In this document: in pieces, positions 9,082 to 45,042 of the stretch
Numbering within the stretch: position 1 is the first letter of the stretch
How the letters are laid out: every line of letters begins with the position of its first letter
Source of the DNA: an uncultured Candidatus Saccharibacteria bacterium
Lineage (GTDB): Bacteria; Patescibacteriota; Minisyncoccia; UBA6257; 1-14-0-10-44-23
Assembly: GCA_964394435.1 (NCBI GenBank)
Contig: CAYMXN010000002.1
Location: 78,196-142,195, forward strand
Reading direction: 5' to 3'
Length of the DNA: 64,000 bases
Notes under the pieces: generated by a model
Told to the model about the DNA's origin: nothing
What the model saw: only the letters and a program-made list of their open reading frames with translations
The model's database searches: none
Made by a program: the position numbers and the translations under genes

Positions 9082-9124
9082 ATGCAAATAATAAGTGCCT
9101 TGTCGAAAGAGCCCGACAAGGCAC
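9082..9124 (-). terminator. Intrinsic terminator for the GC-rich sigma-like gene.
   Basis: Hairpin with an 11-bp stem (gtgccttgtcg-aaagagc-ccgacaaggcac) followed by UUAUUAUUU on the minus strand. Confidence 0.6.
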
Positions 9125-9132
9125 GATATAGA

Positions 9133-9723
9133 TCACTCTCCGAGAAACGACTCAAGCTTCCTGCGACGAACTGGGTGCTGAAGCCTTCGGACTGCTTCGA
9201 GGCATAGTTGCCTAACCCGCTCTCGGCTTAGACCTATTTCTCGCCCGATTGCCGCATGGGTCATTCCTTCAAGAAAATGCTTGCGAACAATCAAAGCATC
9301 CTTTGGGTTGAGCGTTCCAAGCACCTTCCCGATTAATGCACGAAGCTCCTTCTGCTCGGCTCCTTCACTCGCCGGCCCGGCGGGAAGAGTAGCAAATGCA
9401 GTCGCGCGCCCCAACATCCTCACAGGAATAGCTCGCGTCGCCTCGAAGGTCTTCGGCGTGGTTAGGAACTCTTGCGTGAAGACTTTCTCCGGCCAAAGCT
9501 CGGAAACGCTCTTCCTGGTTAATTCGAAGAGCTTCGCCGCCACCAGCGGACTGACCTCCTTCGGTCTTTTCCGCATATTGACCCACCGCCCGAATGTGAC
9601 ATGATCCACTCCGACGAATTCTGCGCCCTGCTTTTGCGTCCAGCCACGCCTGCGCAACGCCTCCCAGAGGATGCCGTGCTTAAGCTGTGCGCGGATTGCG
9701 ATCGGAAACCTTGATTCGGACAT
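9133..9723 (-). CDS. GC-rich cassette gene encoding a DNA-binding protein with an XRE-like HTH and a sigma-70 region-4-like HTH.
   Basis: The C-terminus THAAIGREIGLSRERVRQLCLEAVRRL matches sigma70 region 4.2. The N-terminal WTQKQGAEFVGVDHVTFGRW is HTH-like. GC content is high against the surrounding DNA. Its own SD is GGAGG with a 5-nt spacing, and a TTGACG-N17-CACAAT promoter lies at about 9745-9775 on the minus strand. Confidence 0.55.
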   Translation of the reverse strand: MSESRFPIAIRAQLKHGILWEALRRRGWTQKQGAEFVGVDHVTFGRWVNMRKRPKEVSPLVAAKLFELTRKSVSELWPEKVFTQEFLTTPKTFEATRAIPVRMLGRATAFATLPAGPASEGAEQKELRALIGKVLGTLNPKDALIVRKHFLEGMTHAAIGREIGLSRERVRQLCLEAVRRLQHPVRRRKLESFLGE

Positions 9724-9814
9724 ACCGACCTCCTACAAAAATAACCGTTCCTATTGTGAAATATATTCTTTATTTCGTCAAACAAAAGCAAGCTCCGATG
9801 TGAGTCCGATTTTA

Positions 9815-11521
9815 TTAAATTCTCTCAAGAACTTTAATGCCAAGCAGGCTCAATCCTTGTTTCATCGCCTGCGCGACGTTGCTGATTAAAACTAACCGAG
9901 CGTTTTTGCGTAACTCGTTTTCGTCGTTTAACACCCTCACCTGTTCGTAGAACTGGCTCGTTAATTTAGCGAGATCAAACACATACTTTGCTAGGTGGCT
10001 GGTGAAGTTTGTTTCTACACACAGCGCGACTACATCCGGCAGGTCGAGAATCTTTTTAGACAACTCCTGCTCAACTGGTTCGGTGAGTAAACTCAAGTCA
10101 GCCTTTTTAATCTTGCCGGCTTTTTCTAAGATGCTCATCAGCCTGGCGTACGTGTACTGGAGGTATGGGGCGCTATCACCGGCGAAATCGAGCATCTGCT
10201 CCCAGTTGAAGATAATGTCGGACTGCCTGTTTTCTTTGAGGTCGTTGTACTTAAGCGCACCAATACCGACAATTTCGGCGATTTCTTTCTGGCGCTCTGC
10301 GGACAAATTGCTGTTTTTTATTTTTACCCTTTCAATGGCGAGCTCAACGATTTTATCCATCAACTCTTCAAGACGAATCGCCCTGCCCTCACGAGTTGAA
10401 AACTTTTTCCCGTCTTCGCCAAGCACCATTCCGTACTTAATATGCTCGGACTCGGTTTTTATACCCAGGAGCTTATCAATCGCAAATAACTGGCTAAAGT
10501 GGAGTGCTTGGTCGTTGGCTACTACGTGTAAAATCTTGGCTGGTTTGTACTTTTTCTCACGATAAAGTGCGGTCGCGATATCGCGGGTTATATACAGACT
10601 CGCCCCGTCAGACTTTTGTACAAGCGCCGGTGGCAAACCGAACTGATCAAGTGGAACAATAATCGAACTCCCCTCGCCAGGCTTGGCGATAGTTTTCTTG
10701 AGTAACGCTAATACTGCCGGCAAATCACGTTCGAAAAATCCTTCGCCTAAATCAACGTCAAAGTGAATACCGAGGCGCGTAAACAATTTATTAAATGCGA
10801 CCATCGACTCATCCTTAAACCACTGCCAGAGCTTGCGATTCTCTTTGTCCCCCTGCTCGAGCTTACGAAACTCTTCTTGGCCCACATTTTCCAAATCCGG
10901 ACGATGCTTAATCTCGTCGTGGAAGCGCACATAAAGTGCGAGCAGTGTTTCGATCGGGTCGCGCTCAACCGAGGCGCGGTCTCCCCACATCTTGTACGCG
11001 GAAATCAGTTTTCCAAACTGCGTGCCCCAGTCGCCAATCCAGTTCCAGCGAATCACCTTATACCCTGACGCCTGATACATATTTGAAAGCGCCTCGCCGA
11101 TGATCATTGAGCGAAGGTGTCCGACGTGCGCCGGCTTGGCGATATTGAGCGACGCGTACTCGATAATCACCTTTTGCCCATCGCCGATATTTGTAAATGC
11201 GAACCCCTTTTTAAAAATGCGCTCGAGTTGAGTCGCAAGATATCCCTGGCTCAAGGTGAAATTAATAAAGCCCGGAGCGACAGCCTCAATACTGCTAAAC
11301 ATTCCCTTTTTGTCGGCGAGCTTAAGCTGCTGTGCAAACTTAGTTGCGATATCAAGCGGATTACTTTTGAGTTCCTTTGCCAAACGCATCGCAACGTTAG
11401 TCGCGTAGTGGCCGAACTCCTTTGCTTTTGGTACATCAAGAGCGGGCTCAAAGGAGAGCTTGAGTGTGTTCTTAATAAAGTCTTTTACGGCTTGTTGGGT
11501 CATTGCTTCAATTATACGCAA
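9815..11521 (-). CDS. argS: Arginyl-tRNA synthetase.
   Basis: HIGH region HVGHLRSMIIGEALSNM and a KFSTREG (KMSK-like) motif; length 568 aa. Confidence 0.85.
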   Translation of the reverse strand: MRIIEAMTQQAVKDFIKNTLKLSFEPALDVPKAKEFGHYATNVAMRLAKELKSNPLDIATKFAQQLKLADKKGMFSSIEAVAPGFINFTLSQGYLATQLERIFKKGFAFTNIGDGQKVIIEYASLNIAKPAHVGHLRSMIIGEALSNMYQASGYKVIRWNWIGDWGTQFGKLISAYKMWGDRASVERDPIETLLALYVRFHDEIKHRPDLENVGQEEFRKLEQGDKENRKLWQWFKDESMVAFNKLFTRLGIHFDVDLGEGFFERDLPAVLALLKKTIAKPGEGSSIIVPLDQFGLPPALVQKSDGASLYITRDIATALYREKKYKPAKILHVVANDQALHFSQLFAIDKLLGIKTESEHIKYGMVLGEDGKKFSTREGRAIRLEELMDKIVELAIERVKIKNSNLSAERQKEIAEIVGIGALKYNDLKENRQSDIIFNWEQMLDFAGDSAPYLQYTYARLMSILEKAGKIKKADLSLLTEPVEQELSKKILDLPDVVALCVETNFTSHLAKYVFDLAKLTSQFYEQVRVLNDENELRKNARLVLISNVAQAMKQGLSLLGIKVLERI

Positions 11522-11528
11522 CTATCCT

Positions 11529-11715
11529 AAAATGAAAATCGGCGACCTCTTCCTGCGGGCAGGAAAAGGTCGCCGAATGAATCCGTCAGTGCGGATGCTT
11601 GCAGCTCGTCTCGAGCAATCCCTTGCCGAAGCGACTGTCGGCCATCCGGCAGAAGAGCTTACAGGCGAGCCGAACCGGCGCCAGAATCAGGCTCATGAGC
11701 CTCCTTTCGTGCGCC
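11529..11715 (-). other. GC-rich structured element or mini-cassette immediately 5' of argS.
   Basis: A GC-rich patch of about 190 bp on the minus strand. It contains AGGAGG-ctc-ATG and a 36-aa Cys/Arg-rich ORF (11586-11696). It ends with a strong hairpin (ggcgacctcttcctgcgggcaggaaaaggtcgcc) followed by a U-run, then the TATAAT -10 box and ATG of argS. It could alternatively be a cis-regulatory leader or an ncRNA. Confidence 0.35.
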
Positions 11716-11795
11716 GTTGCCGTGGGCGCATTCATTTATTATGCCAAAAAATGCTGCTTTAGGCAATTTATGCTATTAATGAGTATAATTGAACT

Positions 11796-12646: not shown

Positions 12647-13375
12647 ATGAGCATTAAAGGAATATTATTCCCCTTTCGTAAACGCTATAAAGATCTCCAG
12701 TCTAAATGGTGGCACCGCTTACTCGTGGTTGCTTTCGCAGTCTTTCTCTGCTTCTATGCATATCTTCTAGCGATTGATTTGATAGAAGACAGCTCGCATA
12801 CGCCACGAAATACAAACTATGTATCTCTAGCGCAGTTCACTAAAGAATACTCTGGATCTGGTAATGCTATTAAACCGTTTTTAGCTAAAAGTTGGACGGT
12901 TGCATGCCTTCAACGCAATACTTTTTCTGACCTATATACCGCTAGCTTTGGCAATGAATTAGTCTCTGGAAATGGCAAATTTAATTTTAGTGGAGGAGAT
13001 TTTTTGGCTAACGCATCATACTGCAACGCGAATCTTAGAGAAAACATCCCTGATTTTATTCGACAACTCCAAGAGAAAGCTCCAAATGTTGAAAAGATGT
13101 ACAAAAATCAAGGAGTTGATTTAACTGAGGCCTTGAACACCTACATTGATCGAAATCCGAGTAATTTATGTATAATTCACCCATCTGTAAAATGTGGCAT
13201 CAAAAACTTGAGCGATCCAGATCAAATCGTCATATTTAGCCCATCCTACAAATTAAATCTCTATGTACTGGGGGCAGGGGTTATAATTTTGCGTATCTAT
13301 TTATTGAGCCTATTTATTCAATTCCTATACTATTTCGGACTCCTCTATGTAATTCTTGGCAAAGAAAATGGCTAA
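12647..13375 (+). CDS. Hypothetical membrane protein (AT-rich island gene 1).
   Basis: An N-terminal TM and C-terminal TMs. The SD is AAGGAGG. The region is AT-rich relative to its neighbours. Confidence 0.5.
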   Translation: MSIKGILFPFRKRYKDLQSKWWHRLLVVAFAVFLCFYAYLLAIDLIEDSSHTPRNTNYVSLAQFTKEYSGSGNAIKPFLAKSWTVACLQRNTFSDLYTASFGNELVSGNGKFNFSGGDFLANASYCNANLRENIPDFIRQLQEKAPNVEKMYKNQGVDLTEALNTYIDRNPSNLCIIHPSVKCGIKNLSDPDQIVIFSPSYKLNLYVLGAGVIILRIYLLSLFIQFLYYFGLLYVILGKENG

Positions 13376-13670
13376 TTGGCTCAAACAAAATTGGTTTAAG
13401 ATAAGTTTGATAGGCTGCTTGTTAATTTACCTTATGCTCGCAATTAGTTCTCAAGCGGGTAAATTTTCCCCCGGCAAGTGCGTACAGGGACTGGACGGGT
13501 ATATATGGCACATAAATAGATTGAATATGGGAGAATATTACTTAATGGGATGGCAAGGTAAGGCATGGGGCAATGAGGTTAAGTTGGATAAAAGCATACT
13601 GGAAAGAAAAACTATTTCGGGAATCCCCGAATATCACGAAATAGAATGCCTTGAATTTAACCCAAGTTAA
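13356..13670 (+). CDS. Hypothetical small secreted or membrane protein.
   Basis: N-terminal hydrophobic segment; overlaps the upstream ORF by 20 nt. Confidence 0.4.
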   Translation: MAKKMANWLKQNWFKISLIGCLLIYLMLAISSQAGKFSPGKCVQGLDGYIWHINRLNMGEYYLMGWQGKAWGNEVKLDKSILERKTISGIPEYHEIECLEFNPS

Positions 13671-13770
13671 AAGACTGTCCTCGACAGAATAGACGATAAT
13701 CGCTCACGCTCCCTCATGAACTGATTCCAAAAGACTGCTCCTGAAGACACCAAAAAGGAAGGATTCATCA

Positions 13771-14031
13771 GTGTTTCCCCTTTTTGCCTATTATAGGGGG
13801 GAGAAAAATAAAAATACAACATCCCGAATGACTAAAAAAGAATTTTTTTGGATCACGATCTATCTCCTGGCTTTAGGTGTTGCTGCGTACTTCGACAACA
13901 AGCACGATAAAGAGTATGAGGAATTTCAGTCTAGGATAACGCCAGAAATAAGAGAGCAATTTAAAAGATGTATTAATGATACTAATAGCTATAAAGACTT
14001 CCAAGAATGCGAAAGTAAAATAAAATTCTAA
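13771..14031 (+). CDS. Hypothetical small membrane protein.
   Basis: Single TM FFWITIYLLALGVAAYF. Confidence 0.4.
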   Translation: MFPLFAYYRGEKNKNTTSRMTKKEFFWITIYLLALGVAAYFDNKHDKEYEEFQSRITPEIREQFKRCINDTNSYKDFQECESKIKF

Positions 14032-14492
14032 TGTCTCCTGCTTTCGCTAAGCTTTTTAAATTGACCATAATCCCCTTGGCAATTTTCAGTTGCGTCTACG
14101 CAACACTCAACCAGCTACTGCCGGAACCAATTCAAGGCTGGACATCAGAAAAGACATCGCTTGAAATGGAGCCTGAAAATATCAATCTGACTAGCGTCAA
14201 GATAATTGATCTCGCAGGATATTTATCTGCTGTTGATGAAGTTGGAGATTCTCAATTTAGTACGTTTGTTTCAAAAAATTTAGACGAACGCTGTCCTTTC
14301 TATGAGCCAAATGGGATCGCCTACCGAGATTGTCTATATGCTTTTGCGGAAGAACAGCGAGCTTTATTTAAGGGTAGCGAAGCTAAAATTGAAGAAGTTG
14401 AACAGTATTGCAATTTAATTAGCGAAAAGTATTTTCCGAGCCTTAAAGGGATTGAACTCTATAATTGGTGCCTGGCGTATAAATTCAGCTAG
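14031..14492 (+). CDS. Hypothetical secreted protein.
   Basis: Signal-peptide-like N-terminus; the start overlaps the stop of the previous ORF (ATGTCT/TAATG overlap). Confidence 0.45.
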   Translation: MSPAFAKLFKLTIIPLAIFSCVYATLNQLLPEPIQGWTSEKTSLEMEPENINLTSVKIIDLAGYLSAVDEVGDSQFSTFVSKNLDERCPFYEPNGIAYRDCLYAFAEEQRALFKGSEAKIEEVEQYCNLISEKYFPSLKGIELYNWCLAYKFS

Positions 14493-14534: not shown

Positions 14535-15041
14535 ATGTTACCAAACCGCATCAATAATCAGATTACCGCACCAGAGGTGCGCGTTATCGATGAGAACGAC
14601 GAAAACGTTGGCGTTTTAGCGATCGCTGAAGCTTTGAAGGTTGCGAAAGAGCGGGGACTCGACTTGATTGAGATTTCAGCTGAAGCAAAGCCGCCGGTTT
14701 GTAAGATTATCAGCTTTGACAAGTTCCGCTATCAGCAGGAGAAAAAGCTCAAGAAGCAAAAAGCGGCGCAGAAAAACACTGGTGGCAATAAGCAGGTGCA
14801 AATCAGTATCCGTGAGGCGAAAAACGACCTCATTATGAAGGCTAACCGTGTAAATGAGTTTTTGAGCGAAGGAAACAATGTGGAAGTTCTACTCCAGCTT
14901 CGTGGACGCGAAAAAGGCAATCGCGATTTCGCCCGCAAGAAAGTCGATGAGTTCTTATTGATGATTACGCCAAATCACACGATTATCGGCGGACCTTCGA
15001 ACGGAATGAGCGGTATTAGCACGCTTTTGGCTAAAAAGTAG
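14535..15041 (+). CDS. infC: Translation initiation factor IF-3.
   Basis: PNRINNQITAPEVRVIDENDENVGV matches the IF-3 N-domain. The gene order infC-rpmI-rplT is conserved. A TTGATT-N16-TAAAAT promoter lies upstream. Confidence 0.85.
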   Translation: MLPNRINNQITAPEVRVIDENDENVGVLAIAEALKVAKERGLDLIEISAEAKPPVCKIISFDKFRYQQEKKLKKQKAAQKNTGGNKQVQISIREAKNDLIMKANRVNEFLSEGNNVEVLLQLRGREKGNRDFARKKVDEFLLMITPNHTIIGGPSNGMSGISTLLAKK

Positions 15042-15115
15042 CCCTCCCCTTGCTAAATCTCCAGCCGTCTGCTATTATCGGTTTATCTTTTTATTAGGTC
15101 CTCTGGACTTTTTTT

Positions 15116-15301
15116 ATGAGAAAAACAGTTGCAAAACGAATTAGAATAACCAAAACCGGCAAGATCATGCGCCGTAAAATGGGTGTTGACCACTTCCGTG
15201 TTCGCAAGAGCAAGGGTCAAAAGCGTGGACAGAAACACAGTCTCGCCGTTCACTCATCTGACCGCCGTATTTTCATGCAGCAAATGCACCGTATTGGATA
15301 A
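15116..15301 (+). CDS. rpmI: 50S ribosomal protein L35.
   Basis: MRKTVAKRIRITKTGKIMRRKMG... Confidence 0.85.
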   Translation: MRKTVAKRIRITKTGKIMRRKMGVDHFRVRKSKGQKRGQKHSLAVHSSDRRIFMQQMHRIG

Positions 15302-15316
15302 TCACTACCTACATTT

Positions 15317-15661
15317 ATGACACGCGTAAAACGAGGAACACTCAATACCCGCAAGCGAAAAAAGACCCTGAAATACACCAAGGGCTTTAAGTGGGGCCGT
15401 AAGAGCAAAGAGGCGGCAGCCAAAGAAGCCTTACTCCACGCCTGGACTCACCAGTTTATGGGTCGCAAGAAGCGTAAACGAGACTTCCGCTCACTCTGGA
15501 CTGTAAAGATGAACGCCGCACTCCGCGAAAACGGAACGACCTACAGCAAGTTCATCGGTGCGCTCAAGAAAGCCAACGTCAAGCTTGATCGCAAGACGCT
15601 CGCCGATCTCGCCGAGCACCAGCCAGAAGTATTCACGAAAATCGTCTCCTTGGTTAAGTAG
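15317..15661 (+). CDS. rplT: 50S ribosomal protein L20.
   Basis: MTRVKRGTLNTRKRKKTLKYTKGFKWGRK... Confidence 0.9.
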   Translation: MTRVKRGTLNTRKRKKTLKYTKGFKWGRKSKEAAAKEALLHAWTHQFMGRKKRKRDFRSLWTVKMNAALRENGTTYSKFIGALKKANVKLDRKTLADLAEHQPEVFTKIVSLVK

Positions 15662-19096: not shown

Positions 19097-19191
19097 CTAT
19101 TTATTTTAGCATCTTTATTCTTAAACGTATGCTACATATACCAGCCTTTTCTTATAAAATAAGCCGGCATCGTATTGATGCCGGCGATAGA

Positions 19192-19509
19192 CTACGCCAA
19201 CCCACTACGCAGGTCTTTCAAGACCTTAGTAGTTAACATCCAGAGTGGAATGAGCGAGGCGACAACCATGACCAAAAGAGCGATATCACGAAACCTTAGG
19301 GCGTGCTCCCTACTGTCCAGCATGATACCTGTCTTAAACGAAGCGGCCGCGATCAGACCAAACAACAGAATCTTGCCAACCAAGAACCCCTTCATTCGCC
19401 TGGCGAGCCTGGGATTTTTCAAAAGGAACCAGAGCATCCTCGCTACGAGAATGCTAGCGCCAACCCCCAGAACGAACTCACTCAACCCAGCGGAGATGAA
19501 CAGCTTCAT
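19192..19509 (-). CDS. Hypothetical membrane protein.
   Basis: Two to three TM helices; a hairpin terminator lies downstream at about 19150-19190 on the minus strand. Confidence 0.4.
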   Translation of the reverse strand: MKLFISAGLSEFVLGVGASILVARMLWFLLKNPRLARRMKGFLVGKILLFGLIAAASFKTGIMLDSREHALRFRDIALLVMVVASLIPLWMLTTKVLKDLRSGLA

Positions 19510-19570
19510 CGCAGTCCTCCTTATGCGTCTTTCCCTAGAATAAGAAGTCGACTACTTTTTGTCAAAATCA

Positions 19571-20878
19571 CTACTCTTTCCTATTGGCGATCGCCTTTTT
19601 CTCTTTTGGGCTAAAGATTTTTACTACACCGTACTCACCGTCATAGCCCGGGGTGATACTCAACTGACCTAGGCGCATGCGCTTGAGCCCCTCGACTACT
19701 CCCGGAGTAGCTACGGCCGCGAAGTCTTTGAGTGGTACCTTCATCAGAATATCGATTTCGGTTGTAAACGCCTTAATCAGCTTTTCATACTCGCGCCAAA
19801 CTGATTTAGATTTCACACCTACGTCAAACGCTTCGCCGATAATACTATCGAGCGTAACAAGATTGATATACGGAACGCGGTTTTGATGATGATTGGCGAT
19901 GACCTGCTCAAATGGTTTTTGTACCGGTCTAATCTCGTCTCTGTCCGCGAGCCGATCGACGCGGTTCATCACCCCCACCACCACTGGCTTACCGCACGCA
20001 CTACAAATGCCGCGATGTTTTTTAGTTTCGTCTGGCGTCCAGCTGATACCACAGGCGCGATGACCATCATAATGATACTTTCCCTCTTCGGGATAATACT
20101 CGATGGTCGCGACAAATGATTTTGGATCGTTCTTTTTAAGCGCGTTTATAATACCAGCGTAAGAGAGTTCGGTATCAAATATATTCGCCTCTCTACCAAT
20201 ACGCTCAAGACTGTGACTGTCAGAGTTTGAGATGAGCGCGATGCGGTCGAGCATCGAAAGTCTCCAGTTCATCGCAGGATCAGATGAGAGCCCGGTCTCC
20301 ATCGCAAAAATTTGATTACTATACTCACCAAAACACTCTTCTATCGTATTAAATCCGGACATTGATCCAAAAAGTGCGAACCACGGAGTCCAAATGTGCG
20401 CCGGGATCACTACCGCCTCGGGATTACTTACAAAAGCGATTTTGGCGACTTCGCGCGCATCAAGCCCCACAATTGGCCGGCCATCCGAACTCAACTTCGC
20501 CCCTGCCTTAAGAAGCGCGGCGTTAATCGTTTCGATCGTCTTAATATCTGGCGCGAGGATAATATTATGCACTCGCCGAGTCTGTCCATCCTTTCTGTAG
20601 ATACTGGAAATCTCAACGGTTAGCACAAATCGAGTCTGTCCAAACGTACCCTTGATTGTTTTTTCTTGATACCTCTTTTTGACACGAAAAAGGCCCGGCT
20701 CTGCTGGCTCAAGCGTCTCCTTAAGATGCTTTATCCAAAGTGGATGCGTAAAATCCCCCGTTCCCATTACTAAGATTCCTTTGTCATCAGCCCAACGGTC
20801 GAGCATCGGAATCGTCATCTGCTTACTCACTGCCCGCGAGTATTTGGAGTGAATATGAAAGTCGCCAATAAAACGCAT
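19571..20878 (-). CDS. PHP-domain nuclease, endonuclease Q-like.
   Basis: The N-terminus MRFIGDFHIHSKYSRAVS carries the PHP metal-binding HxH motif. There is a C-terminal zinc ribbon (CGISW...CSACGKP). The size, 435 aa, matches EndoQ at about 420 aa. Confidence 0.5.
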   Translation of the reverse strand: MRFIGDFHIHSKYSRAVSKQMTIPMLDRWADDKGILVMGTGDFTHPLWIKHLKETLEPAEPGLFRVKKRYQEKTIKGTFGQTRFVLTVEISSIYRKDGQTRRVHNIILAPDIKTIETINAALLKAGAKLSSDGRPIVGLDAREVAKIAFVSNPEAVVIPAHIWTPWFALFGSMSGFNTIEECFGEYSNQIFAMETGLSSDPAMNWRLSMLDRIALISNSDSHSLERIGREANIFDTELSYAGIINALKKNDPKSFVATIEYYPEEGKYHYDGHRACGISWTPDETKKHRGICSACGKPVVVGVMNRVDRLADRDEIRPVQKPFEQVIANHHQNRVPYINLVTLDSIIGEAFDVGVKSKSVWREYEKLIKAFTTEIDILMKVPLKDFAAVATPGVVEGLKRMRLGQLSITPGYDGEYGVVKIFSPKEKKAIANRKE

Positions 20879-21399: not shown

Positions 21400-21518
21400 A
21401 CAGCTAGTATAGCAAATACCTCCCTCCGCTTTAAGACAGCCCTTGCTTGACTGGTGATATACGCCTGCTAGGTTAAAGGTAGTTCTTCAACACCCTACAG
21501 AAAGGAGGTGGCACCTCT

Positions 21519-22619
21519 ATGCCGAAAAAGATCTCTCGCGTAAGCGAGCTGAAGGTGCAGCAAGTCACCTCCCGCATCGCATCGATGGCGCAGATTGTCA
21601 TCGAACTCCTCCCTGACGGAAGCGTGACTACGCACTGGAATGCGACTCCGCAGATACATCTTCTCGTGGTTATTGGTCCTGGGCGCGCCTGGGATTACGA
21701 CTACCAGCGAGCGATTCTTTGCGAGATTGGACTCCACCGGACTCGTCCTTACCGTCAGGCGTACGCTATCGGCTCGGGAACGAGTCGAATGAAAACGGGT
21801 AAGCGGCCACTGGTGATTCCGAAGCGTACAAAAAAGTTCTTCTTAACGGACGAGCAGCACCTACGCGTAGCTCCAGCGATTTTCGCAGCCCTTCAGGATT
21901 GGGCCGACCTCTGCGTCGCTCCGTGGAAAAATCGAACCTTCGCACTCCCCCAGCAGCGTCTCTACTATCTACGCAGAGGACGCCGAACTGCTGAATCTGT
22001 CTCAGTTAAGGAGTGGAAACGTGGCATCCGCGTCCATGTGAGTCCGCTCGACGAGCTTCTTCTGGCTGACTTCTATGCAGCCGAAGCTCGACTAAACACT
22101 CAACGACAGGACTGGCGGACGAGCATCGCCAAACGGTTAAGCATGATGCTCTCTGATACCAGAGGTGCGCACGTGCGACCGCTCGAGCAGCTCAAGCCGT
22201 TTGCTAACGCGGTAGAGTTCCTAACCAAGAGCAGCTATCCTCGCCATCTCATCTTTGGACTTAGATCGACACTCGGCAAGCGTCTTCGTGAAGACATCTT
22301 CCCTAAGCTCCTCCCGAGGGTCTTTAACGGCGACTTGCGTTATTACCGAGAGATGAGCAAGTGGGAAAGTCGAGCGTTAGACGGCCTTAGAGAGCGCGTT
22401 GGCGAACTTCAGGTGTTCTACGTACCAGAGCGCGAAGCAGTAGGTGGCCCGCAGCACAGCGGAGTTACGTTTGAGCTTTGGGCTCACCCGGAGCTCTATG
22501 TGAACACTCGGCCGAAGCCACCCGAGGGCGACTTCGCTGATCGAGAGTCTACTAGCACCGAAGAAACCACAAACTCACCCGGGTTGAACTTTGACCCCGA
22601 GGGTGAGATTCCCTTCTAA
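21519..22619 (+). CDS. GC-rich cassette gene encoding a hypothetical 366-aa protein.
   Basis: GC composition is high against the flanks. Its own SD is AGGAGG 9 nt upstream, with a TTGACT -35-like box upstream and an intrinsic terminator downstream. No recognisable domain. Confidence 0.5.
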   Translation: MPKKISRVSELKVQQVTSRIASMAQIVIELLPDGSVTTHWNATPQIHLLVVIGPGRAWDYDYQRAILCEIGLHRTRPYRQAYAIGSGTSRMKTGKRPLVIPKRTKKFFLTDEQHLRVAPAIFAALQDWADLCVAPWKNRTFALPQQRLYYLRRGRRTAESVSVKEWKRGIRVHVSPLDELLLADFYAAEARLNTQRQDWRTSIAKRLSMMLSDTRGAHVRPLEQLKPFANAVEFLTKSSYPRHLIFGLRSTLGKRLREDIFPKLLPRVFNGDLRYYREMSKWESRALDGLRERVGELQVFYVPEREAVGGPQHSGVTFELWAHPELYVNTRPKPPEGDFADRESTSTEETTNSPGLNFDPEGEIPF

Positions 22620-22660
22620 CCCGCCCTTTTGCGCAAGCGACTGGGCGGGCTTTTTATTTT
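22620..22660. terminator. Intrinsic terminator shared with the convergent SDR gene.
   Basis: cccgccc...gggcggg hairpin followed by ctttttatttt. Confidence 0.7.
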
Positions 22661-28991: not shown

Positions 28992-29026
28992 ATGAAGTAT
29001 GAATTATGAGTTATGAATTATGAAAA
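28992..29026. repeat. Array of five tandem 7-bp iterons (ATGARTT), 5 nt upstream of the RNase start codon.
   Basis: ATGAAGT ATGAATT ATGAGTT ATGAATT ATGAAAA. The same architecture recurs at 36271-36305, 39269-39303 and 44321-44355. Confidence 0.7.
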
Positions 29027-29067
29027 GATACTAAGACTCGAAAAATCTATTAATTCAATTATAGCGC

Positions 29068-29108
29068 AAATTAAAAAGCCCCGCGCGACGCATAGCATCG
29101 CACGGGGG
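29068..29108 (-). terminator. Intrinsic terminator of the GC-rich cassette gene (minus strand).
   Basis: Hairpin ccccgcgcgacgcatagcatcgcacgggg followed by CUUUUUAAUUU on the minus strand. Confidence 0.65.
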
Positions 29109-29165
29109 CAAAGGGGTTCAGGTGATCAAGGTCTTAGGGACCACGATAACCAGAACCCGAGGGAG

Positions 29166-29657: not shown

Positions 29658-29721
29658 GGAAACTCCTTCTCGCCTGAAAGGCGGAGGTTTCTGGCTGCCC
29701 GCCAGTTGAGAGGCGTAGGCG

Positions 29722-29771
29722 TTTTGCCACAGCAGAAAAAGGCCTTAGAGCCCTTTTTTGCTGTGGCAAAA
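29722..29771 (-). promoter_or_regulatory. Long imperfect-palindrome hairpin in the 5'UTR of the cassette gene.
   Basis: ttttgccacagcagaaaaaggcc-ttagag-cccttttttgctgtggcaaaa lies between the promoter and the SD. Confidence 0.5.
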
Positions 29772-29804
29772 CGTGCAAGTAGTCTTATTAAATATCTAAG
29801 ATAA

Positions 29805-29833
29805 ATTATAGCACTTTTTGTGCTATTTGTCAA
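29805..29833 (-). promoter_or_regulatory. Consensus sigma70 promoter TTGACA-N17-TATAAT on the minus strand.
   Basis: The reverse complement reads cattgacaaatagcacaaaaagtgctataattt. Confidence 0.65.
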
Positions 29834-29885
29834 TGCCTCATAACCCCGTTAGAACTAGGATATTAAACGAAATAATACGTACGAA

Positions 29886-31681: not shown

Positions 31682-31705
31682 ATACCACCATCATACTGCT
31701 CCGGT

Positions 31706-32065
31706 TAAAACAAATAAAGAAGCCGTATGTTTCTCCGAGAAACATACGGCCAAGAACCAATGCCCGAAGGCTAGCCTGCTGCGCGCGTCCAAACCCGCCG
31801 TCTGATCGCCAACTGCTGGCTCCACCTCCATGTGCTGAGCCACTGGCGAACCATCGACGAGTGGAAGTGCCTCCTGTTCTGCTGGTGCAACCTTGGACGA
31901 CGGAACGCCGTCTTCGGGGTGGGTGCGTGCCCACCGCACGCCAGATGCAGGGCCAACCTCTGGACCCGACCAATCGCCTGCGACATCTACACCTCCTGCT
32001 GGCTCTCTGCGCCTACCGCATGAGCCACATATCTTCATTATTCAGAAGTCCGGGCGTATCGTCAA
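31706..32065 (-). other. GC-rich element immediately 5' of ruvA, either a mini-cassette or a structured ncRNA.
   Basis: About 350 bp of high-GC DNA on the minus strand. It carries a TTGACG-N17-AATAAT promoter (32037-32065) and AGGAGG plus ATG of a 71-aa Arg/Trp-rich ORF (31771-31986). It ends in an intrinsic terminator (31706-31750, gccgtatgtttctccgagaaacatacggc followed by a U-run). The coding status is uncertain. Confidence 0.35.
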
Positions 32066-32123: not shown

Positions 32124-32381
32124 ATGCCGATTACATCTTCAGCTAAAAAGGCGCTGCGCCAGACCAAAACGCACCGCAAAGCAAACATTAAACGCCAGAA
32201 CGAACTCAAGGCTGTTATTAAGGCCTTTAAGAAACTTGTCGCTACTGACAAGAAAGAGGCTGAAAAGTTTGTTAGCCAGCTCTACGCTCGTATCGATAAG
32301 TCAGCTAAGACTGGTATTATCAAGCTCAACAAGGCTGCGCGCCTCAAGAGCCGATTAGTAAAGAAGCTCGTAACTAAATAG
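32124..32381 (+). CDS. rpsT: 30S ribosomal protein S20.
   Basis: MPITSSAKKALRQTKTHRKANIKRQNELKAVIKAFKK... The longer ORF from 31893 is an artefact of the GC-rich upstream DNA. Confidence 0.85.
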   Translation: MPITSSAKKALRQTKTHRKANIKRQNELKAVIKAFKKLVATDKKEAEKFVSQLYARIDKSAKTGIIKLNKAARLKSRLVKKLVTK

Positions 32382-33180: not shown

Positions 33181-33636
33181 CTATAATGTTGTTAACGCAC
33201 TCCGAACCTCGTCAGGCAGAATCTTAGATTTCCCATCTTCTCCGACAGAAACGACTACAAAATCTATAGTAGCTACAAGCGTGCCATCCTCCTTGAACAT
33301 CGCTTGATGATAAGTTGCACTTTTTGCTCTTGGTGGCATCACCTTAGTAAGAACAATCGCCCGCTCACCAATCTTCATTTCGTCAACATATTCAATGTTG
33401 AGTTTTTTCGCAAAAAGACGAATTCCAAACTCCTTCAGTAAATAATCCCTGCTAATACCACGCTCTTCTTGAGATGATTTTTGAGCCTCTTCAAAAATCT
33501 TAATAAACCCAAGATAATTTAAATGGCCGTTTTCATCAATTAACTCTGTCGTTATTACTCGCTCATATCGAATGCCCCACTCCGCGGTCTCTTTTTCTTT
33601 TGGAATATCGGGAAACTTTGTTGGATTTTCTACCAT
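33181..33636 (-). CDS. Hotdog-fold thioesterase-like protein.
   Basis: 4HBT-like core HLNYLGFIKIFEEA; 151 aa. Confidence 0.45.
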   Translation of the reverse strand: MVENPTKFPDIPKEKETAEWGIRYERVITTELIDENGHLNYLGFIKIFEEAQKSSQEERGISRDYLLKEFGIRLFAKKLNIEYVDEMKIGERAIVLTKVMPPRAKSATYHQAMFKEDGTLVATIDFVVVSVGEDGKSKILPDEVRSALTTL

Positions 33637-35354: not shown

Positions 35355-36261
35355 TGTGGGTTTGGCATTTCGGGCAGAAATGCGCCGATCTCCCTCCTAC
35401 TGTAATCCTTTTGATAGGAGTTGCGCAACGTTGACAAGGTTCATCTTCTCTTTGATAAACAAGTCGATGTCCCGTATACCCACCCTCTTTGCCACTAGGG
35501 TCACGAAAGTCGGAAGTCGAGGTACCACGCAACTCAACAGCCTTTGATAGAACTGCGCGCATCGCTTCATAGATAGCGGACAGTTCGTCGGTCTTGAGTT
35601 TATTCGCCGGGCGGCTTGGATGGACGTGGGCGCGCCAGAGGATATCGTCGGAGTAGATGTTGCCGATACCGGCCAGTACATATGGGTCCATCAGCACCTG
35701 CTTAATTGGTCGGTGTTCGTGCGTGATGATATCTGCGAAAATCTCCTCGGTAAGCTTTGGGTCGAGCGCGTCTGGCCCGAGTTCGGCGAGCTCGGGGAGT
35801 GATTCGATTTGTTCGCATGGCCCGAGCAGCACCTTTGCAAACTTGCGCACATCAGAAAGTCCGAGCATCTGCCCGTTATCTAAATACAAAATCAGATGCA
35901 CGTAGCCGTTATATGAGTCTTCGATTATCTCTCTTGGTTCGAGTGCGACCGCCCTACCGCCTACAATCTCCCACTTCCCAATTAAAAAGTGGCCGGTCAT
36001 TTTTTGATGTACAAGTAGAAGTTTGTCGCGCGTAAGGTCGATGAGGATATTTTTCCCTTTGCGACGGGCGCCGATTATTTTTTCACCAATGATATCTTTT
36101 TGAAACTTTGTGACTGCGGACTCTGATATATGCAGCCGAGATTGGTTGAGTGGATCTTTAATCATCTTCGGCCAGTCAAACCAAACACCGACAATAACGC
36201 GCCCGGTGAGTCGGTCGCGCAAATCTCTTACCACAGTTTCTACTTCGGGAAGTTCGGGCAT
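35338..36261 (-). CDS. mutM: Formamidopyrimidine-DNA glycosylase.
   Basis: N-terminal MPELPEVETV with the catalytic Pro2, and a C-terminal zinc finger CQRCATPIKRITVGGRSAHFCPKCQ. The track ORF extending to 36309 reads through the iteron array and is unlikely. Confidence 0.85.
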   Translation of the reverse strand: MPELPEVETVVRDLRDRLTGRVIVGVWFDWPKMIKDPLNQSRLHISESAVTKFQKDIIGEKIIGARRKGKNILIDLTRDKLLLVHQKMTGHFLIGKWEIVGGRAVALEPREIIEDSYNGYVHLILYLDNGQMLGLSDVRKFAKVLLGPCEQIESLPELAELGPDALDPKLTEEIFADIITHEHRPIKQVLMDPYVLAGIGNIYSDDILWRAHVHPSRPANKLKTDELSAIYEAMRAVLSKAVELRGTSTSDFRDPSGKEGGYTGHRLVYQREDEPCQRCATPIKRITVGGRSAHFCPKCQTHNGKKS

Positions 36262-36270
36262 AAGGGGGGG

Positions 36271-36305
36271 ATGAGTTATGACGTATGAATTACGAACTAT
36301 GAATA
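36271..36305. repeat. Array of five 7-bp iterons, 10 nt upstream of the mutM start.
   Basis: ATGAGTT ATGACGT ATGAATT ACGAACT ATGAATA. The first 26 nt are identical to 39269-39294. Confidence 0.7.
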
Positions 36306-36371
36306 ACAAAGAAGAGACCTTTAGCTGTCAGCTTAAAGCTTTTGGGAATAAATACAAAGCAAGCGAAGATA

Positions 36372-36400
36372 TTGACATTATATAGAATAGAATGTATAAT
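36372..36400 (+). promoter_or_regulatory. Consensus sigma70 promoter TTGACA-N17-TATAAT.
   Basis: ttgaca-ttatatagaatagaatg-tataat. Confidence 0.65.
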
Positions 36401-36481
36401 ATATTTGCTCGTAACCTAGCACCTTTGCCCATTGGCGCTGGTGCGCAATCCTACCTCCAAGAGACAGGAAAGGAGTTCCCC

Positions 36482-36970
36482 GTGAAGAAGATCCGGATCG
36501 GCAAAAAACTCGCACTACTCCTCCGCGCGCTTCCGAAGATTATCGAGGCCGCCCTCAAAGAGCGGTTCCGAGAGGTTGATGAATGGGAGTTCTATCATGT
36601 CGCCAGTCGAGCCGAAGCCCCTCCCGAATACAGAGAGCCTCTCGCGGACAATGCAACAGAGGAGGAGGTTGATGAGTGGCACATGCGCCAAAATGATTGG
36701 CGCTTCGATGACTACCTGTGTACTGCCTCGATCTCCTACAACGGGCACATCCAGGTGCGCGGCAAGATCGAAATCGAGGAGTGGTTCGCGATCGGATATG
36801 ACCCGATTGTGAACGCGACTCTATGGATCTGCCTGCCCGACGGAACGCAGATTCGCAAGGCGTTCCGCTATGACGAGCGGACTAGCCACCTCGCCGAAGA
36901 AAATGATGAGAAGATTCCGGAGAGCCCGCCGGAAGAGATCCCCTTCGACAAATCGAAGAGTGCAGCGTAG
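36482..36970 (+). CDS. GC-rich cassette gene encoding a hypothetical acidic 162-aa protein.
   Basis: GTG start with SD GGAAAGGAG 7 nt upstream; high GC. The ATG at 36392 overlaps the -10 box and is unlikely to be the start. A terminator follows. Confidence 0.5.
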   Translation: MKKIRIGKKLALLLRALPKIIEAALKERFREVDEWEFYHVASRAEAPPEYREPLADNATEEEVDEWHMRQNDWRFDDYLCTASISYNGHIQVRGKIEIEEWFAIGYDPIVNATLWICLPDGTQIRKAFRYDERTSHLAEENDEKIPESPPEEIPFDKSKSAA

Positions 36971-36980
36971 GAAGTCACGC

Positions 36981-37015
36981 CCCCGACCAGACAGCTGGTT
37001 CGGGGCTTTTTTATT
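36981..37015 (+). terminator. Intrinsic terminator.
   Basis: ccccgaccagacagctggttcgggg followed by cttttttatt. Confidence 0.7.
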
Positions 37016-37105: not shown

Positions 37106-37152
37106 AGTCAGGAAATCTCTGACCACGGTTTCTACTTCAGGAAGTTCGGGTA
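37106..37152 (-). repeat. Duplicated fragment of the mutM 5' end (about codons 1-15).
   Basis: About 40 of 45 nt are identical to 36215-36261: the fragment reads ...aaatctctgaccacggtttctacttcaggaagttcgggtat against mutM ...aaatctcttaccacagtttctacttcgggaagttcgggcat. In the copy ATG has become ATA. Confidence 0.6.
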
Positions 37153-37161
37153 TGAAAAGTG

Positions 37162-37911
37162 CTATTTCTTTGGGGTCCTCCCAAGAAGCTTGTCGATTTC
37201 CTCCTTGTTGAGATTGATTCTATCTTCTTCGGTCATAAGAGCCCTTGGGGCTAAAGGCTTCCACACTTGATAGAGCCGTACGACATGAGGAAAATTTCTT
37301 TGATAGAAGTTTTTTAACACATAAAGCATAATGGCGTTTGTCTCTACCACTTCAATGAATGGATAATGAATTGCTTTATATGCTTCATGTTCTGAATTCT
37401 CGGGTAAAAGTATTTTTGCGGATAATTCTTCAAGCATATTCAACATATCAATAATTATCCTTTGCAATTTCATGTTTTTAAAAATATCTTCATTATATTC
37501 TTTGAATTTTTTGCCAAATGTCTCAATTTCTTTATCGGAAAGAGATGTTATGTCTTTTAATGAGAAGGTAGTTCCTCCGCTGAGTGACCCTAAGTTTATC
37601 ATTTTTACATTTTCATCTTTTACGCTGTCAAATACTTTTTGATTCAGAGGAATAATCTCTTCCCTAAAAAAATTCAAGACGCCCAAGACAGACTCGTTAG
37701 CATTTCTTTTTCTTTCTTCATGCAGATCAATCAGCGATACTAATATTGGTATTACACCTAAAATACCAATCGTAGCTAAAATTGCTTTTGCAGCTTCTCC
37801 TAAATCTCTGATAACCTCACTTGGCAACTGAGGGATTATAAAATAAGTTAATAAGCTGACTGCAAATACATCTATCGCTACCCATGTAAAAATTTTTTTA
37901 TATGACTTCAT
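37162..37911 (-). CDS. Hypothetical membrane-anchored protein in an AT-rich region.
   Basis: N-terminal TM helices; low GC compared with its neighbours. Confidence 0.45.
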   Translation of the reverse strand: MKSYKKIFTWVAIDVFAVSLLTYFIIPQLPSEVIRDLGEAAKAILATIGILGVIPILVSLIDLHEERKRNANESVLGVLNFFREEIIPLNQKVFDSVKDENVKMINLGSLSGGTTFSLKDITSLSDKEIETFGKKFKEYNEDIFKNMKLQRIIIDMLNMLEELSAKILLPENSEHEAYKAIHYPFIEVVETNAIMLYVLKNFYQRNFPHVVRLYQVWKPLAPRALMTEEDRINLNKEEIDKLLGRTPKK

Positions 37912-39268: not shown

Positions 39269-39353
39269 ATGAGTTATGACGTATGAATTACGAGTTATGA
39301 GCGACGAGAAAATCTCAGTCATAATTCATAACTCTTACTTCGTTATTCATTAC
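39269..39353. repeat. Inverted pair of five-iteron arrays separated by a 15-bp spacer.
   Basis: The forward array is ATGAGTT ATGACGT ATGAATT ACGAGTT ATGAGCG (39269-39303). The inverted array is TCATAAT TCATAAC TCTTACT TCGTTAT TCATTAC (39319-39353). It sits between the kinase start and the stop of the exonuclease gene. Confidence 0.65.
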
Positions 39354-44313: not shown

Positions 44314-44320
44314 TTTGGAG

Positions 44321-44355
44321 ATGAATTATGAAAAATGAGTTACGAGTTATGAGAA
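44321..44355. repeat. Array of five 7-bp iterons, 7 nt upstream of the pilB-like start.
   Basis: ATGAATT ATGAAAA ATGAGTT ACGAGTT ATGAGAA. Confidence 0.7.
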
Positions 44356-44418
44356 GAAGGCGGGATTGCTATAAGTATACGGCTTTTGTTGTGATGATTG
44401 AAGTAATTGCGCTATATA

Positions 44419-44447
44419 TTGACATTTATATTAATCTGTGCTATATT
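44419..44447 (+). promoter_or_regulatory. Near-consensus sigma70 promoter TTGACA-N17-TATATT.
   Basis: ttgaca-tttatattaatctgtgc-tatatt. Confidence 0.6.
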
Positions 44448-44491
44448 ATTTTTGTTCTTCAACTTCTAACCCCCGGAGGCAATAGCCTTTT

Positions 44492-44998
44492 ATGCACGAC
44501 CTATCTCCCTGGTGGAAGGGCTTCATCGCCGGCGGACTGTTCATCGGCTGGGCGGTGGCTTGCATCGCGATGACCGTCTGGTTCTTGTACGTACCGTCGC
44601 TGCGAGCCATGGCGTCCAAGACTCTGAAGCGCGCCAGCAAGGCGCTCTGCGTTCTCGCCCTCGGGCTGCTCTCGAGCGGGTGTTCCGCTGTCAGCAGCCG
44701 GGTCAGCCTGGCGACCAACATCCCGCTTATCCGTACCGAGGGGACGATCGTCCGGGTTGTCAACTCGACCGGTGACACGTTGCGCGTACGCGCGGATGGC
44801 CACCCGGAGTTCGCGCTCCCGGCGGGCGAGGAGGTTCCGGTCCTGTTCTACGGGCCGGACTACAGTGCCCACGCATGGGGCAGTAGTGCGACCATCGTCG
44901 TCCTTGGTGCGAGCGGCGCGGCGACGCGATCGGTGTCGGTCGCCTCATCGGGAGTCAACTCTGAGGCGTGGATCGTCGGTCACGACGACCTACGCTAG
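44492..44998 (+). CDS. GC-rich cassette gene encoding a membrane or lipoprotein-like 168-aa hypothetical protein.
   Basis: Two N-terminal hydrophobic segments, the second ending LLSSGC (lipobox-like). SD GGAGG. High GC. A terminator follows. Confidence 0.5.
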   Translation: MHDLSPWWKGFIAGGLFIGWAVACIAMTVWFLYVPSLRAMASKTLKRASKALCVLALGLLSSGCSAVSSRVSLATNIPLIRTEGTIVRVVNSTGDTLRVRADGHPEFALPAGEEVPVLFYGPDYSAHAWGSSATIVVLGASGAATRSVSVASSGVNSEAWIVGHDDLR

Positions 44999-45006
44999 CT
45001 CCCTGT

Positions 45007-45042
45007 CCCCCACCAACTCGTTGGTGGGGGCATTTTTATTTT
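45007..45042 (+). terminator. Intrinsic terminator.
   Basis: cccccaccaactcgttggtggggg followed by catttttatttt. Confidence 0.7.

Follow-up and report, generated by a model that had tools for sequence, protein, structure and literature searches.

GC-rich single-gene units between the core genes of a Paceibacteria chromosome: probable moron-like accessory modules

We analysed a 64,000-nucleotide stretch of contig CAYMXN010000002.1 (positions 78,196 to 142,195; hereafter the window), in which eight GC-rich patches, here called cassettes A to H, lie scattered among housekeeping genes. The window is a natural piece of a chromosome of the Patescibacteria (candidate phyla radiation, CPR; Paceibacteria-type). 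The explanation that we favour, and hold to be probable, is that the cassettes are moron-like autonomous accessory-gene transcription units in recombination hot spots of this chromosome. A unit would comprise a promoter of the sigma70 type, a strong Shine-Dalgarno (SD) sequence in a leader that is long and often structured, one open reading frame (ORF) with high GC content at third codon positions (GC3), and a terminator that would insulate the downstream host gene. The units would occupy intergenic hot spots between core genes that are almost all SD-less and often leaderless-like. After DNA uptake or conjugation, host recombination would add, replace, duplicate and remove them through double crossover, either in the core genes alongside or in terminators that units share. 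Many of them may encode envelope or ligand-binding functions under diversifying pressure.

The genomes of CPR bacteria are tiny and streamlined, and the cells depend on hosts; little is understood of how they gain and express variable functions. At this locus the flexible genome takes the form of very small plug-in units. These bring all their own expression signals to intergenic slots that can be reused, and they contrast with the core genome in base composition and in the mode of translation initiation.

An earlier reading of the sequence alone had put the patches at 60-65% GC. The patches are real, while the range was overstated: within the boundaries drawn there we obtained 56.7% (A), 53.4% (B), 59.4% (C), 55.2% (D), 57.0% (E), 58.3% (F), 53.9% (G) and 61.1% (H), i.e. 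53.4-61.1%, so that the earlier range is too high for B, D and G. The remainder of the window has 45.7% GC. Every patch lay within the top 0.25% or less of equal-length window segments taken outside the patches, with z-scores of 2.2-4.2. For the ORFs only, GC amounted to 55.7-65.9% and GC3 to 0.59-0.83, compared to a GC3 of 0.43-0.57 for typical host genes. The codon choice of the cassettes was unlike that of both the bulk host genes and the translation-machinery genes rplT, rpsT and infC. Adaptation to high expression was therefore rejected as the cause of the raised GC3, with the reservation that the reference set of three genes is very small; rplT has a likewise raised GC3 of 0.66.

The cassettes also differ from the resident genes in translation initiation. 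As had been proposed, a strong SD sequence precedes each of the 7/7 visible cassette starts. The predicted energy of the SD/anti-SD duplex was <= -7.8 in all seven (median -9.5), compared to <= -6 in 3/46 host genes (median -0.6), and two of these three SD-bearing exceptions are AT-rich compositional outliers. A -10-like box (TATAAT-like) ending 4-14 nt before the ATG was present at 16/46 host genes and at 0/7 cassettes. This layout implies that leaderless or very short-leader mRNAs would be widespread among the resident genes. Examples of the resident genes in this comparison are argS, smpB and the genes at 22654-23475, 26913-27572 and 58946-59458. A cruder survey revealed the same split in the relatives L008, L010, L012 and L046. 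None of the papers searched mentions Patescibacteria, leaderless and Shine-Dalgarno together.

Perfect TTGACA-N17/18-TATAAT promoters occur at three sites in 60 kb: two are positioned to drive E and G, the third stands before the tmRNA gene. Scored against the same consensus, H reached 11/12, F 10/12 and B 9/12 positions, such that the claim of own near-consensus sigma70 promoters holds for most cassettes. At D a -35-like element stands alone and falls below scoring. A promoter had been denied to A and to C, the element upstream of argS. For C this is incorrect, since it has a weak promoter-like element with an upstream TG; that of A falls outside the window. Promoter-like matches in total showed no excess over shuffled controls. 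The best promoters and terminators of the window, however, coincide with the cassettes. Terminator hairpins with a GC stem and T-run follow all 8/8 units (D and G by direct reading), again as stated before. Also confirmed was the shared orientation with the downstream gene for the cupredoxin gene, ileS, argS, the beta-CASP/RNase J-like gene, ruvA and yebC. The cassettes have a foreign composition and architecture relative to the resident genes.

The leaders of the cassettes are long and often structured. L034 and L035 both keep the leader hairpin of E with its 24-bp arms, in which 17 pairs show compensatory changes. The leader of G is about 94% identical in L046, whose housekeeping DNA matches the window at 65-70%, and contains a predicted pairing of UCCU with the AGGA of the SD sequence. 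Neither leader matched an Rfam family.

Further evidence comes from the occupancy of the E, F, G and H sites, which we compared in L008, L009-L012 and L046. L008 is a close relative with about 85% DNA identity and flanking proteins that are 89-98% identical. Its alignment with the window spans all housekeeping genes and breaks exactly at E, F and G, and at each of these sites L008 carries a GC-rich promoter-ORF-terminator unit of its own. The proteins at the same sites share 30% identity (E), 46% over 46 aa (F), and 31% and 24% (G, two tandem copies) with those of the window. At E and G the terminators are better conserved than the ORFs (40 nt at 97.5% and 39 nt at 100%, respectively), and in L008 the terminator is repeated after both tandem G copies.

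In several more distant relatives the holA-rpsT-ruvA-mur-nuclease synteny is kept. Among them, L009 and L011 have no cassette at the E site (29 and 9 bp, respectively), and in L010 and L012 this site is taken by an unrelated GC-rich cassette in the opposite orientation. At the F site no cassette is present in L009, L011 and L012, while L010, a relative of L012, has a different one that encodes a signal/transmembrane (TM) protein. The presence/absence polymorphism that had been suggested as a check is thus found, and the contents of the sites turn over. In L046, the housekeeping DNA of which is 65-71% identical to the window, a single G with a near-identical leader and 61% amino acid identity occupies the same site. 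Since G is only 31% identical in the close relative L008, the tree of G conflicts with the genome tree. The H site of L046 holds a different GC-rich cassette (GC3 0.82) for a 447-aa TM protein.

E was also found in foreign surroundings. In L034 an E cassette with 67-70% GC abuts the 3' end of a tRNA-Gly gene among unrelated genes, in a locus of 48% GC. The DNA similarity to the window starts at the -35 box of E and stops at the terminator. These boundaries show that E, at least, moves into unrelated contexts as one unit spanning promoter to terminator. E-family members in L035 and L037-L040 carry their own promoter and terminator as well, and most are far GC-richer than their surroundings.

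The flanking genes show possible traces of recombination. Between the window and L008, identity falls from 0.94 to 0.72 within mutM on the side facing G, and mur beside E has 0.70-0.81 identity versus about 0.85 elsewhere; both values compare two genomes. This suggests recombination in the flanking genes. Flanking direct repeats were seen at two cassettes only, in the form of a mutM fragment for G and of AT-rich heptamer arrays for E. Two copies of the mutM 5' end (36221-36261 and 37113-37153) bracket G. The second abuts a gene at 37162-37911 (249 aa, 33.9% GC, SD-led, no Pfam match) that is missing from L008, and is a probable recombination scar that looks to stem from a separate insertion.

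The published definitions of two known systems match these properties. In a moron, one gene comes with a promoter and a terminator of its own and with deviant GC, and is inserted between genes that adjoin each other in relatives (PMC3594210). Morons are independently transcribed and spread by horizontal transfer, a concept of Hendrix and Juhala reviewed by Cumby, Davidson & Maxwell 2012 (PMC3594210). Like phage morons, the cassettes have predicted promoters of their own (near-consensus for E, G, H, F and B, weak for C and D), a factor-independent terminator after all eight units and a composition unlike that of the neighbouring genes, and the E and F units are extra DNA between genes adjacent in relatives. 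Unlike morons, they lie between chromosomal housekeeping genes (ileS, argS, ruvA, mutM, yebC and others), have neither a prophage in their vicinity nor relatives among phages, and differ from the host in initiation mode, being SD-led rather than SD-less or leaderless.

The behaviour of the sites resembles hot spots of horizontal gene transfer free of mobile genetic elements (MGEs), i.e. fixed core-gene intervals with varying accessory genes and no integrases or transposases (Oliveira, Touchon, Cury & Rocha 2017, PMC5635113). Homologous recombination of the core genes on either side was proposed as the route of their turnover, above all for transformable bacteria (PMC5635113). In agreement with this, the E, F, G and H sites are bounded by syntenic core genes, their contents differ among relatives and the cassette intervals have no mobility genes. 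In contrast to such hot spots, each site contains one or two tiny units (0.2-1.4 kb); the uniform self-sufficient architecture and the consistent GC-richness lie outside the hot-spot concept, and elevated recombination of the flanks is hinted at here. Same-site replacement, tandem duplication via identical terminators and the recombination traces together fit the double recombination model (PMC5635113), which leaves first insertions into new contexts such as L034 unexplained. The statement that the cassettes represent no known class is therefore not supported: their architecture is that of the moron definition (PMC3594210) and the behaviour of their sites that of MGE-free hot spots (PMC5635113). 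We regard the cassettes as chromosomal moron-like modules set apart by their initiation mode and not as a categorically new mobile element.

With integron cassettes and CALIN arrays (clusters of attC sites lacking integron-integrases) the units share their small single-gene size, a hairpin-forming 3' repeat, a varying site content and, at the G site of L008, tandem units with the same 3' hairpin. They differ by the absence of attC core sites (R''/R') and of an IntI among the window ORFs, by having own promoters, which integron cassettes usually lack, and by being scattered singly and not placed behind attI/Pc. A search for the attC core pattern yielded one core pair, located inside the ORF of B, and none in the terminators. 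Unlike insertion sequences (IS), miniature inverted-repeat transposable elements (MITEs) or transposons, the cassettes showed no terminal inverted repeats, target-site duplications or transposase. The cassettes are not integron cassettes, IS elements or MITEs. Among the annotated ORFs of the 64-kb window we found no integrase, transposase or reverse transcriptase (RT), and among the cassettes no terminal inverted repeats, target-site duplications, attC-like cores or DNA common to different cassettes. The reported lack of a transposase, integrase, attC and terminal repeats is thus correct.

The idea of a family of cassettes was not borne out: all-against-all blastp was negative, as was hhalign of D, G and H against the E profile, and there are no DNA ends in common. 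The cassette products, as far as these comparisons reach, are unrelated and do not form one family. Nothing points to the dedicated insertion machinery that had been considered. As an explanation, a so far undescribed insertion system would employ a trans-acting enzyme to place promoter-ORF-terminator modules into specific intergenic targets, possibly the GC-rich terminator hairpin, tRNA 3' ends or AT-rich heptamer arrays. We judge it unlikely. The sharp unit boundaries from -35 box to terminator are in its favour, as are the conservation of the terminator beyond that of the ORF at E and G, its repetition between the tandem G cassettes of L008, the E cassette abutting tRNA-Gly in L034, the heptamer arrays that flank E on both sides and adjoin G and H, and a conjugation-like gene cluster in the same window. 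However, the 64 kb hold no recombinase, transposase or RT, the cassettes share no ends, inverted repeats, target-site duplications or attC-like sites, and the terminators of different cassettes are unrelated in sequence. The heptamer arrays also occur without a cassette (39270-39312), and L008 has no array upstream of its orthologue of the RNase J-like gene (g27613) though an E-family cassette is located there.

The heptamer arrays consist of TCATAAT/TCATAAC/TCGTAAY units on the minus strand at 8929-8971, 28986-29028, 29861-29903, 36265-36307, 39270-39312 and 44315-44357. They stand directly before the start codons of ileS and the RNase J-like, mutM, sensor kinase and pilB-like genes, and one further array overlaps the Mur-ligase stop. 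They are candidates for leader regulatory repeats or for recombination substrates. The conjugation-like genes belong to a type IV secretion system (T4SS)-like cluster at 53660-63987 (minus strand). This cluster is a possible DNA-transfer route for the CPR genome, with no link to the cassettes by any evidence.

For cassette E we could establish a link to diversity-generating retroelements (DGRs). A word-indexed search with the E protein returned two homologues, while an exhaustive profile search returned 3,431 cluster representatives at E <= 1e-3 (1,612 at <= 1e-10), none of them with a Pfam or PDB sequence match. The cassette products had been described as having no recognisable homologs; this is incorrect for E with its family of about 3,400 clusters, and likewise for B, which has helix-turn-helix (HTH) and Sigma70_r4 domains. 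Protein E adopts, with high confidence, a C-type-lectin (CLec/FGE-type) fold and thereby has the hallmark of DGR targets, a C-type-lectin (or immunoglobulin) fold with a variable region (VR) at the C-terminus. In L040 the 3' end of an E-family gene recurs downstream as a 128-nt repeat, after which an RVT_1 RT is encoded. Between the VR (6556-6683) and the template repeat (TR, 7038-7165), 19/19 mismatches are at TR adenines (A to G 17, A to T 2). Adenine-only mismatches between TR and VR are the defining DGR signature (PMC5758913). L039 has the same geometry of target and repeat together with an RT homologue. As read from these repeats, the E family is a proven target of DGRs in L040 and L039.

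E resembles DGR targets with a C-type-lectin fold (e.g. Mtd, TvpA) in its CLec/FGE-type fold and in the GC-rich inverted repeat after the gene; the members of its family in L040 and L039 have a VR at the target 3' end, a TR before the RT and adenine-only mismatches. Unlike those, E itself has no RT, no TR and no sign of ongoing variation in the window, and the seven other cassettes show no DGR link. Neither an RT nor a TR-like repeat was found for any cassette within the 64 kb or about 6.6 kb past the right edge. E including its 3' end and putative VR is 100% identical in the independent run L002, and we saw no sign of ongoing VR variation; in both cases consensus contigs of independent samples were compared. 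It follows that E, a target gene of the DGR family, either depends on a remote DGR or has become detached from one.

DGRs can act on remote targets (PMC5758913), and Patescibacteria have their own DGR clade (PMC8144416). Together with the membership of E in a proven target family this could mean that all cassettes are components or remote targets of a DGR elsewhere in the genome. We consider this very improbable, given the missing RT and TR-like repeats in the region covered, the absence of profile similarity between D, G, H and the E family, the DNA-binding nature of B and the identity of the putative VR of E in independent samples.

Two further observations concern the E family and DGRs. In L016 a DGR unit at 866-3031, consisting of a GC-rich putative target (about 1051-1900) and an RT (2169-2960), is bracketed by 68-nt direct repeats with 90% identity (866-933 and 2964-3031), which suggests that the whole DGR was inserted or duplicated as a unit. 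The Bradyrhizobium japonicum plasmid pS11L-1 (NZ_CP126014.1, L047) contains two copies of a 251-aa hypothetical protein (14821-15576 and 19130-19885) with about 34% identity to the core of the E protein. Both are carried by a conjugative megaplasmid, in the neighbourhood of a relaxase gene and an IS110 transposase but of no annotated RT; the E-family domain is therefore not confined to Patescibacteria.

The origin of the cassettes was searched in several directions. E and D had no matches in 50,697 phage genomes, and no relatives of B, D, E, G or H were present in IMG/VR. PHROG matches were limited to the generic HTH/sigma domains of B, such that a phage origin was rejected. A plasmid origin was rejected as well: D, G and H had no plasmid matches, and the relatives of E on Bradyrhizobium megaplasmids are distant and have no RT nearby. 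GC-rich Paceibacteria (L022 and L024, cruder survey) rarely use SD sequences either and were dropped as donors.

The most serious alternative concerns the nature of the genes themselves. They could be native, vertically inherited, lineage-specific and fast-evolving, with GC3, SD and promoters reflecting a special expression regime plus selection and not transfer, and with the differences among relatives arising from rapid divergence and differential loss of tandem paralogues. D fits this picture. Its single homologue (P0004, 83% identity) is syntenic in L036, the substitutions per codon position are 0.11/0.08/0.38, which identifies D as a bona fide gene, and the flanks are equally diverged. 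D evolves together with its flanks, under purifying selection. G, kept with its highly conserved leader at the same site in the window, in L008 and in the distant L046, fits as well, and the tandem G paralogues of L008 show that differential paralogue loss could mimic replacement. Also in favour are the raised GC3 of rplT and the GC-rich target beside an AT-rich RT gene inside one DGR unit (GC3 about 0.75 versus about 0.38). On the other hand, native genes would not be expected in unrelated contexts with homology confined to the unit, as seen for E. Nor do they agree with E and F sites that are empty in syntenic relatives and filled by unrelated, oppositely oriented genes in others, with an identity of about 30% for E and G between genomes in which the flanking proteins share 89-98%, compared to 83% for D at a greater genome distance, and with codon usage unlike ribosomal and IF3 genes.

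Several of our results count against the moron-like explanation. As its substitutions show, D has been passed on vertically and stably together with its flanks and has been subject to purifying selection, and G is found at the same site in three genomes, one of them distant; some cassettes are therefore old residents and not recent arrivals. For the same reason D does not support the designation of the cassettes as selfish genes. E-family genes are still GC-rich over about 30% DNA divergence in AT-richer hosts, which together with the AT-rich RT of DGR units indicates that selection keeps the composition and that it is not simply unameliorated foreign DNA. No GC-rich donor emerged from the phage, viral-contig and plasmid searches apart from the distant Bradyrhizobium E-family members, and GC-rich Paceibacteria are no obvious donors because they too lack SD sequences. 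Recombination in the flanking genes is no more than suggested, and the promoter, terminator and leaderless assignments are predictions from sequence.

E-family genes have very low A3 and also low T3, and the non-DGR cassettes are alike. Avoidance of adenine on the sense strand as a DGR-specific cause was rejected on these grounds; the pattern rather reflects general GC3 enrichment. The composition of the cassettes looks at least partly gene-intrinsic and not a simple donor signature, and their persistent GC-richness has no explanation in the moron-like reading that we favour. For this reason the native-gene alternative stays alive, as a clear minority possibility.

A broader idea is that Patescibacteria may keep a distinct, widely shared pool of self-expressing, GC3-rich, SD-led modules that are mobile among genomes and intergenic hot spots by a so far undescribed mechanism and have their own initiation route. 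We give it a modest chance, comparable to that of native genes. The units would run exactly from promoter to terminator and have structured leaders, with the GC-rich terminator hairpin or tRNA 3' ends as a possible joint. If true, such modules would offer these minimal cells a way to control their variable surface and interaction proteins, DGR targets among them, apart from the core genome, and GC-richness would be selected for in modules of this class and would not point to a donor. If the arrangement at this locus is general, high GC3, an SD-led start and an own terminator would provide a rule to find accessory, probably host-interaction, genes in thousands of uncultured genomes. It would further tie the variable proteins of DGRs to a broader class of modules and raise the question whether leaderless and SD-dependent translation act as two regulatory channels.

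Finally, the patches could be artefacts: either chimeras from assembly or binning, or GC-rich structured RNAs that do not code for protein and were taken for genes. GC-rich DNA does yield long spurious ORFs in several frames, and gene callers took the wrong strand or frame for E and F. The chance of such an artefact is nevertheless negligible. Contigs from six independent sequencing runs are 100% identical across the cassette/host junctions (ruvA with adjoining cassette F, cassette E and cassette H), by which a synthetic or chimeric origin was dismissed. There is protein-level homology with an excess of third-position substitutions, and a high-confidence fold for E. Rfam at the gathering threshold identified a tmRNA and one tRNA and nothing else in the window, and in E-value mode no credible RNA family at 29.0-37.1 kb. 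These scans gave no support to structured RNA as an explanation of the patches, which was rejected.

The coordinates and signals of the cassettes are listed in Table 1. Cassette A lies directly upstream of a cupredoxin/DUF7282 gene (316-1110), and family scans (Pfam, PHROG, NCBIfam, PADLOC) of its protein gave no match. Protein B consists of an XRE-type HTH and a sigma-70 region 4 (Pfam Sigma70_r4 9e-13, HTH_31/HTH_3) and also matches a PHROG sigma factor and NCBIfam sigma70-ECF; its PADLOC match is limited to the sigma domain. The SD duplex energy of B is -10.9 and its GC3 0.61. Between the terminator of B and ileS, at 8974-9088 (minus strand), we noticed a separate promoter-like TTTGCA-N17-TATAGT with about 70 nt of leader and a short terminator (8991-8974). 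This element, which has no Rfam match, may act on ileS as an attenuator or small RNA. The ORF of C (GC 61%, GC3 0.81) is a candidate coding sequence solely by its SD and GC3.

Protein D had no matches in Pfam, PHROG, NCBIfam, PADLOC or the phage, plasmid and viral sets. It ends in an acidic tail, ...NFDPEGEIPF in the window and ...NFDPDEEIPF in L036 (368-1468). The form NFDP(E/D)(G/E)EIPF is conserved and unique among all ORFs examined, and we take it to resemble the C-terminal protein-interaction tip DDDIPF of the single-stranded DNA-binding protein SSB. The protein of cassette G contains a similar internal PPEEIPF. Protein F has 71 aa with 14 Arg+Lys and zero acidic residues. Its coding frame, which is not the longest ORF, was assigned by SD, a GC3 of 0.81 and the same-site homologue in L008. 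Protein G is lineage-restricted, and its AlphaFold2 model of moderate confidence (pLDDT 64) gave generic alpha+beta fold matches and no specific ones. Protein H has an N-terminal TM segment followed by a lipobox-like LLSSGC; its ORF has a GC of 65.9% and a GC3 of 0.83, and the cassette recurs as an exact copy in an independent run. Public gene calls place an antisense 176-aa ORF over E (29013-29543, plus strand) and a 115-aa out-of-frame ORF over F (31691-32038, minus strand). Standard gene callers are thus prone to mis-call GC-rich cassettes in AT-leaning genomes.

Table 1. Positions of the cassettes, their predicted signals and further features in the window (SD, Shine-Dalgarno sequence; UTR, untranslated region).
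Feature	Position	Strand	Context and ORF	Signals and remarks
Cassette A (cut by window edge)	1-312	+	ORF end 265, 86 aa visible	terminator 273-304 + T-run, GCCCCGAAGGTGCACGTGCGCACTTTCGGGGC+TTTTTTATT
Cassette B	9082-9800	-	between argS and ileS; ORF 9133-9723, 196 aa	promoter-like TTGACG-N17-CACAAT 9781-9753; SD AGGAGGT; terminator 9124-9095
Mini-cassette C	11529-11770	-	directly upstream of argS; 36-aa ORF 11586-11696 (MSLILAPVRLACKLFCRMADSRFGKGLLETSCKHPH)	TTGCCT-N17-CATAAT with TG 11766-11738; SD AAAGGAGG; strong terminator 11576-11539
Cassette D	21447-22660	+	ORF 21519-22619, 366 aa	-35-like TTGACT alone; SD AAGGAGGTG, dG -13.2; terminator 22620-22659
Cassette E	29068-29833	-	between Mur-ligase gene and beta-CASP/RNase J-like gene; ORF 29166-29657, 163 aa, GTG start	perfect TTGACA-N17-TATAAT with TG 29833-29805; SD AAGGAG; terminator 29107-29079
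Cassette E leader hairpin	29773-29720	-		24-bp arms; plus conserved 3' UTR
Cassette F	31706-32065	-	between rpsT (32124-32381, +) and ruvA; ORF 31771-31986	TTGACG-N17-AATAAT 32065-32037; SD AGGAGGTG; terminator 31751-31721
Cassette G	36372-37015	+	next to mutM; ORF 36482-36970, 162 aa, GTG start	perfect TTGACA-N17-TATAAT 36372-36400; conserved leader 36401-36481 with predicted SD-sequestering stem; terminator 36980-37015
Cassette H	44419-45042	+	between PilB-type ATPase gene and yebC; ORF 44492-44998, 168 aa	TTGACA-N17-TATATT with TG 44419-44447; SD GGAGG; terminator 45007-45030 + T-run
Duplicated mutM 5'-end fragment	37113-37153	-		41 nt, 90% identical to 36221-36261
T4SS-pilin-like gene	54847-55830	-	T4SS-like cluster	
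VirB4/DUF87 ATPase	56542-58251	-	T4SS-like cluster	
TraC-like	58253-58927	-	T4SS-like cluster	
PrgI-like	58946-59458	-	T4SS-like cluster	
TrbL_3	60428-62671	-	T4SS-like cluster	

The remaining genes of the window are ordinary host genes: ileS, argS, smpB followed by the tmRNA gene, IF3, L20, ClpB-like, SDR, the beta-CASP/RNase J-like nuclease, Mur ligase, ruvA, S20, holA, pyrG, mutM, a sensor kinase, ruvB, the PilB-type ATPase, yebC, ruvC, dnaN, dnaA, YidC and the T4SS-like cluster. The closest database genomes are metagenome-assembled genomes of uncultured Paceibacteria/Parcubacteria. AT-rich outliers are present beside the GC-rich patches, such that the genome holds atypical DNA of both low and high GC. 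They comprise a block at 12647-14492 with 35-40% GC, the first gene of which (12647-13375) has a strong SD and no Pfam match, and a 4HBT thioesterase gene (33181-33636, 39.7% GC) that is missing from L008. The ileS gene (5383-8934) contains an unusual insertion, a His_Phos_1 histidine-phosphatase domain at residues 503-669 inside the class I synthetase domain. Since dnaN and dnaA are located on the minus strand at 49082-51811, the replication origin is probably near 51.8-52.0 kb.

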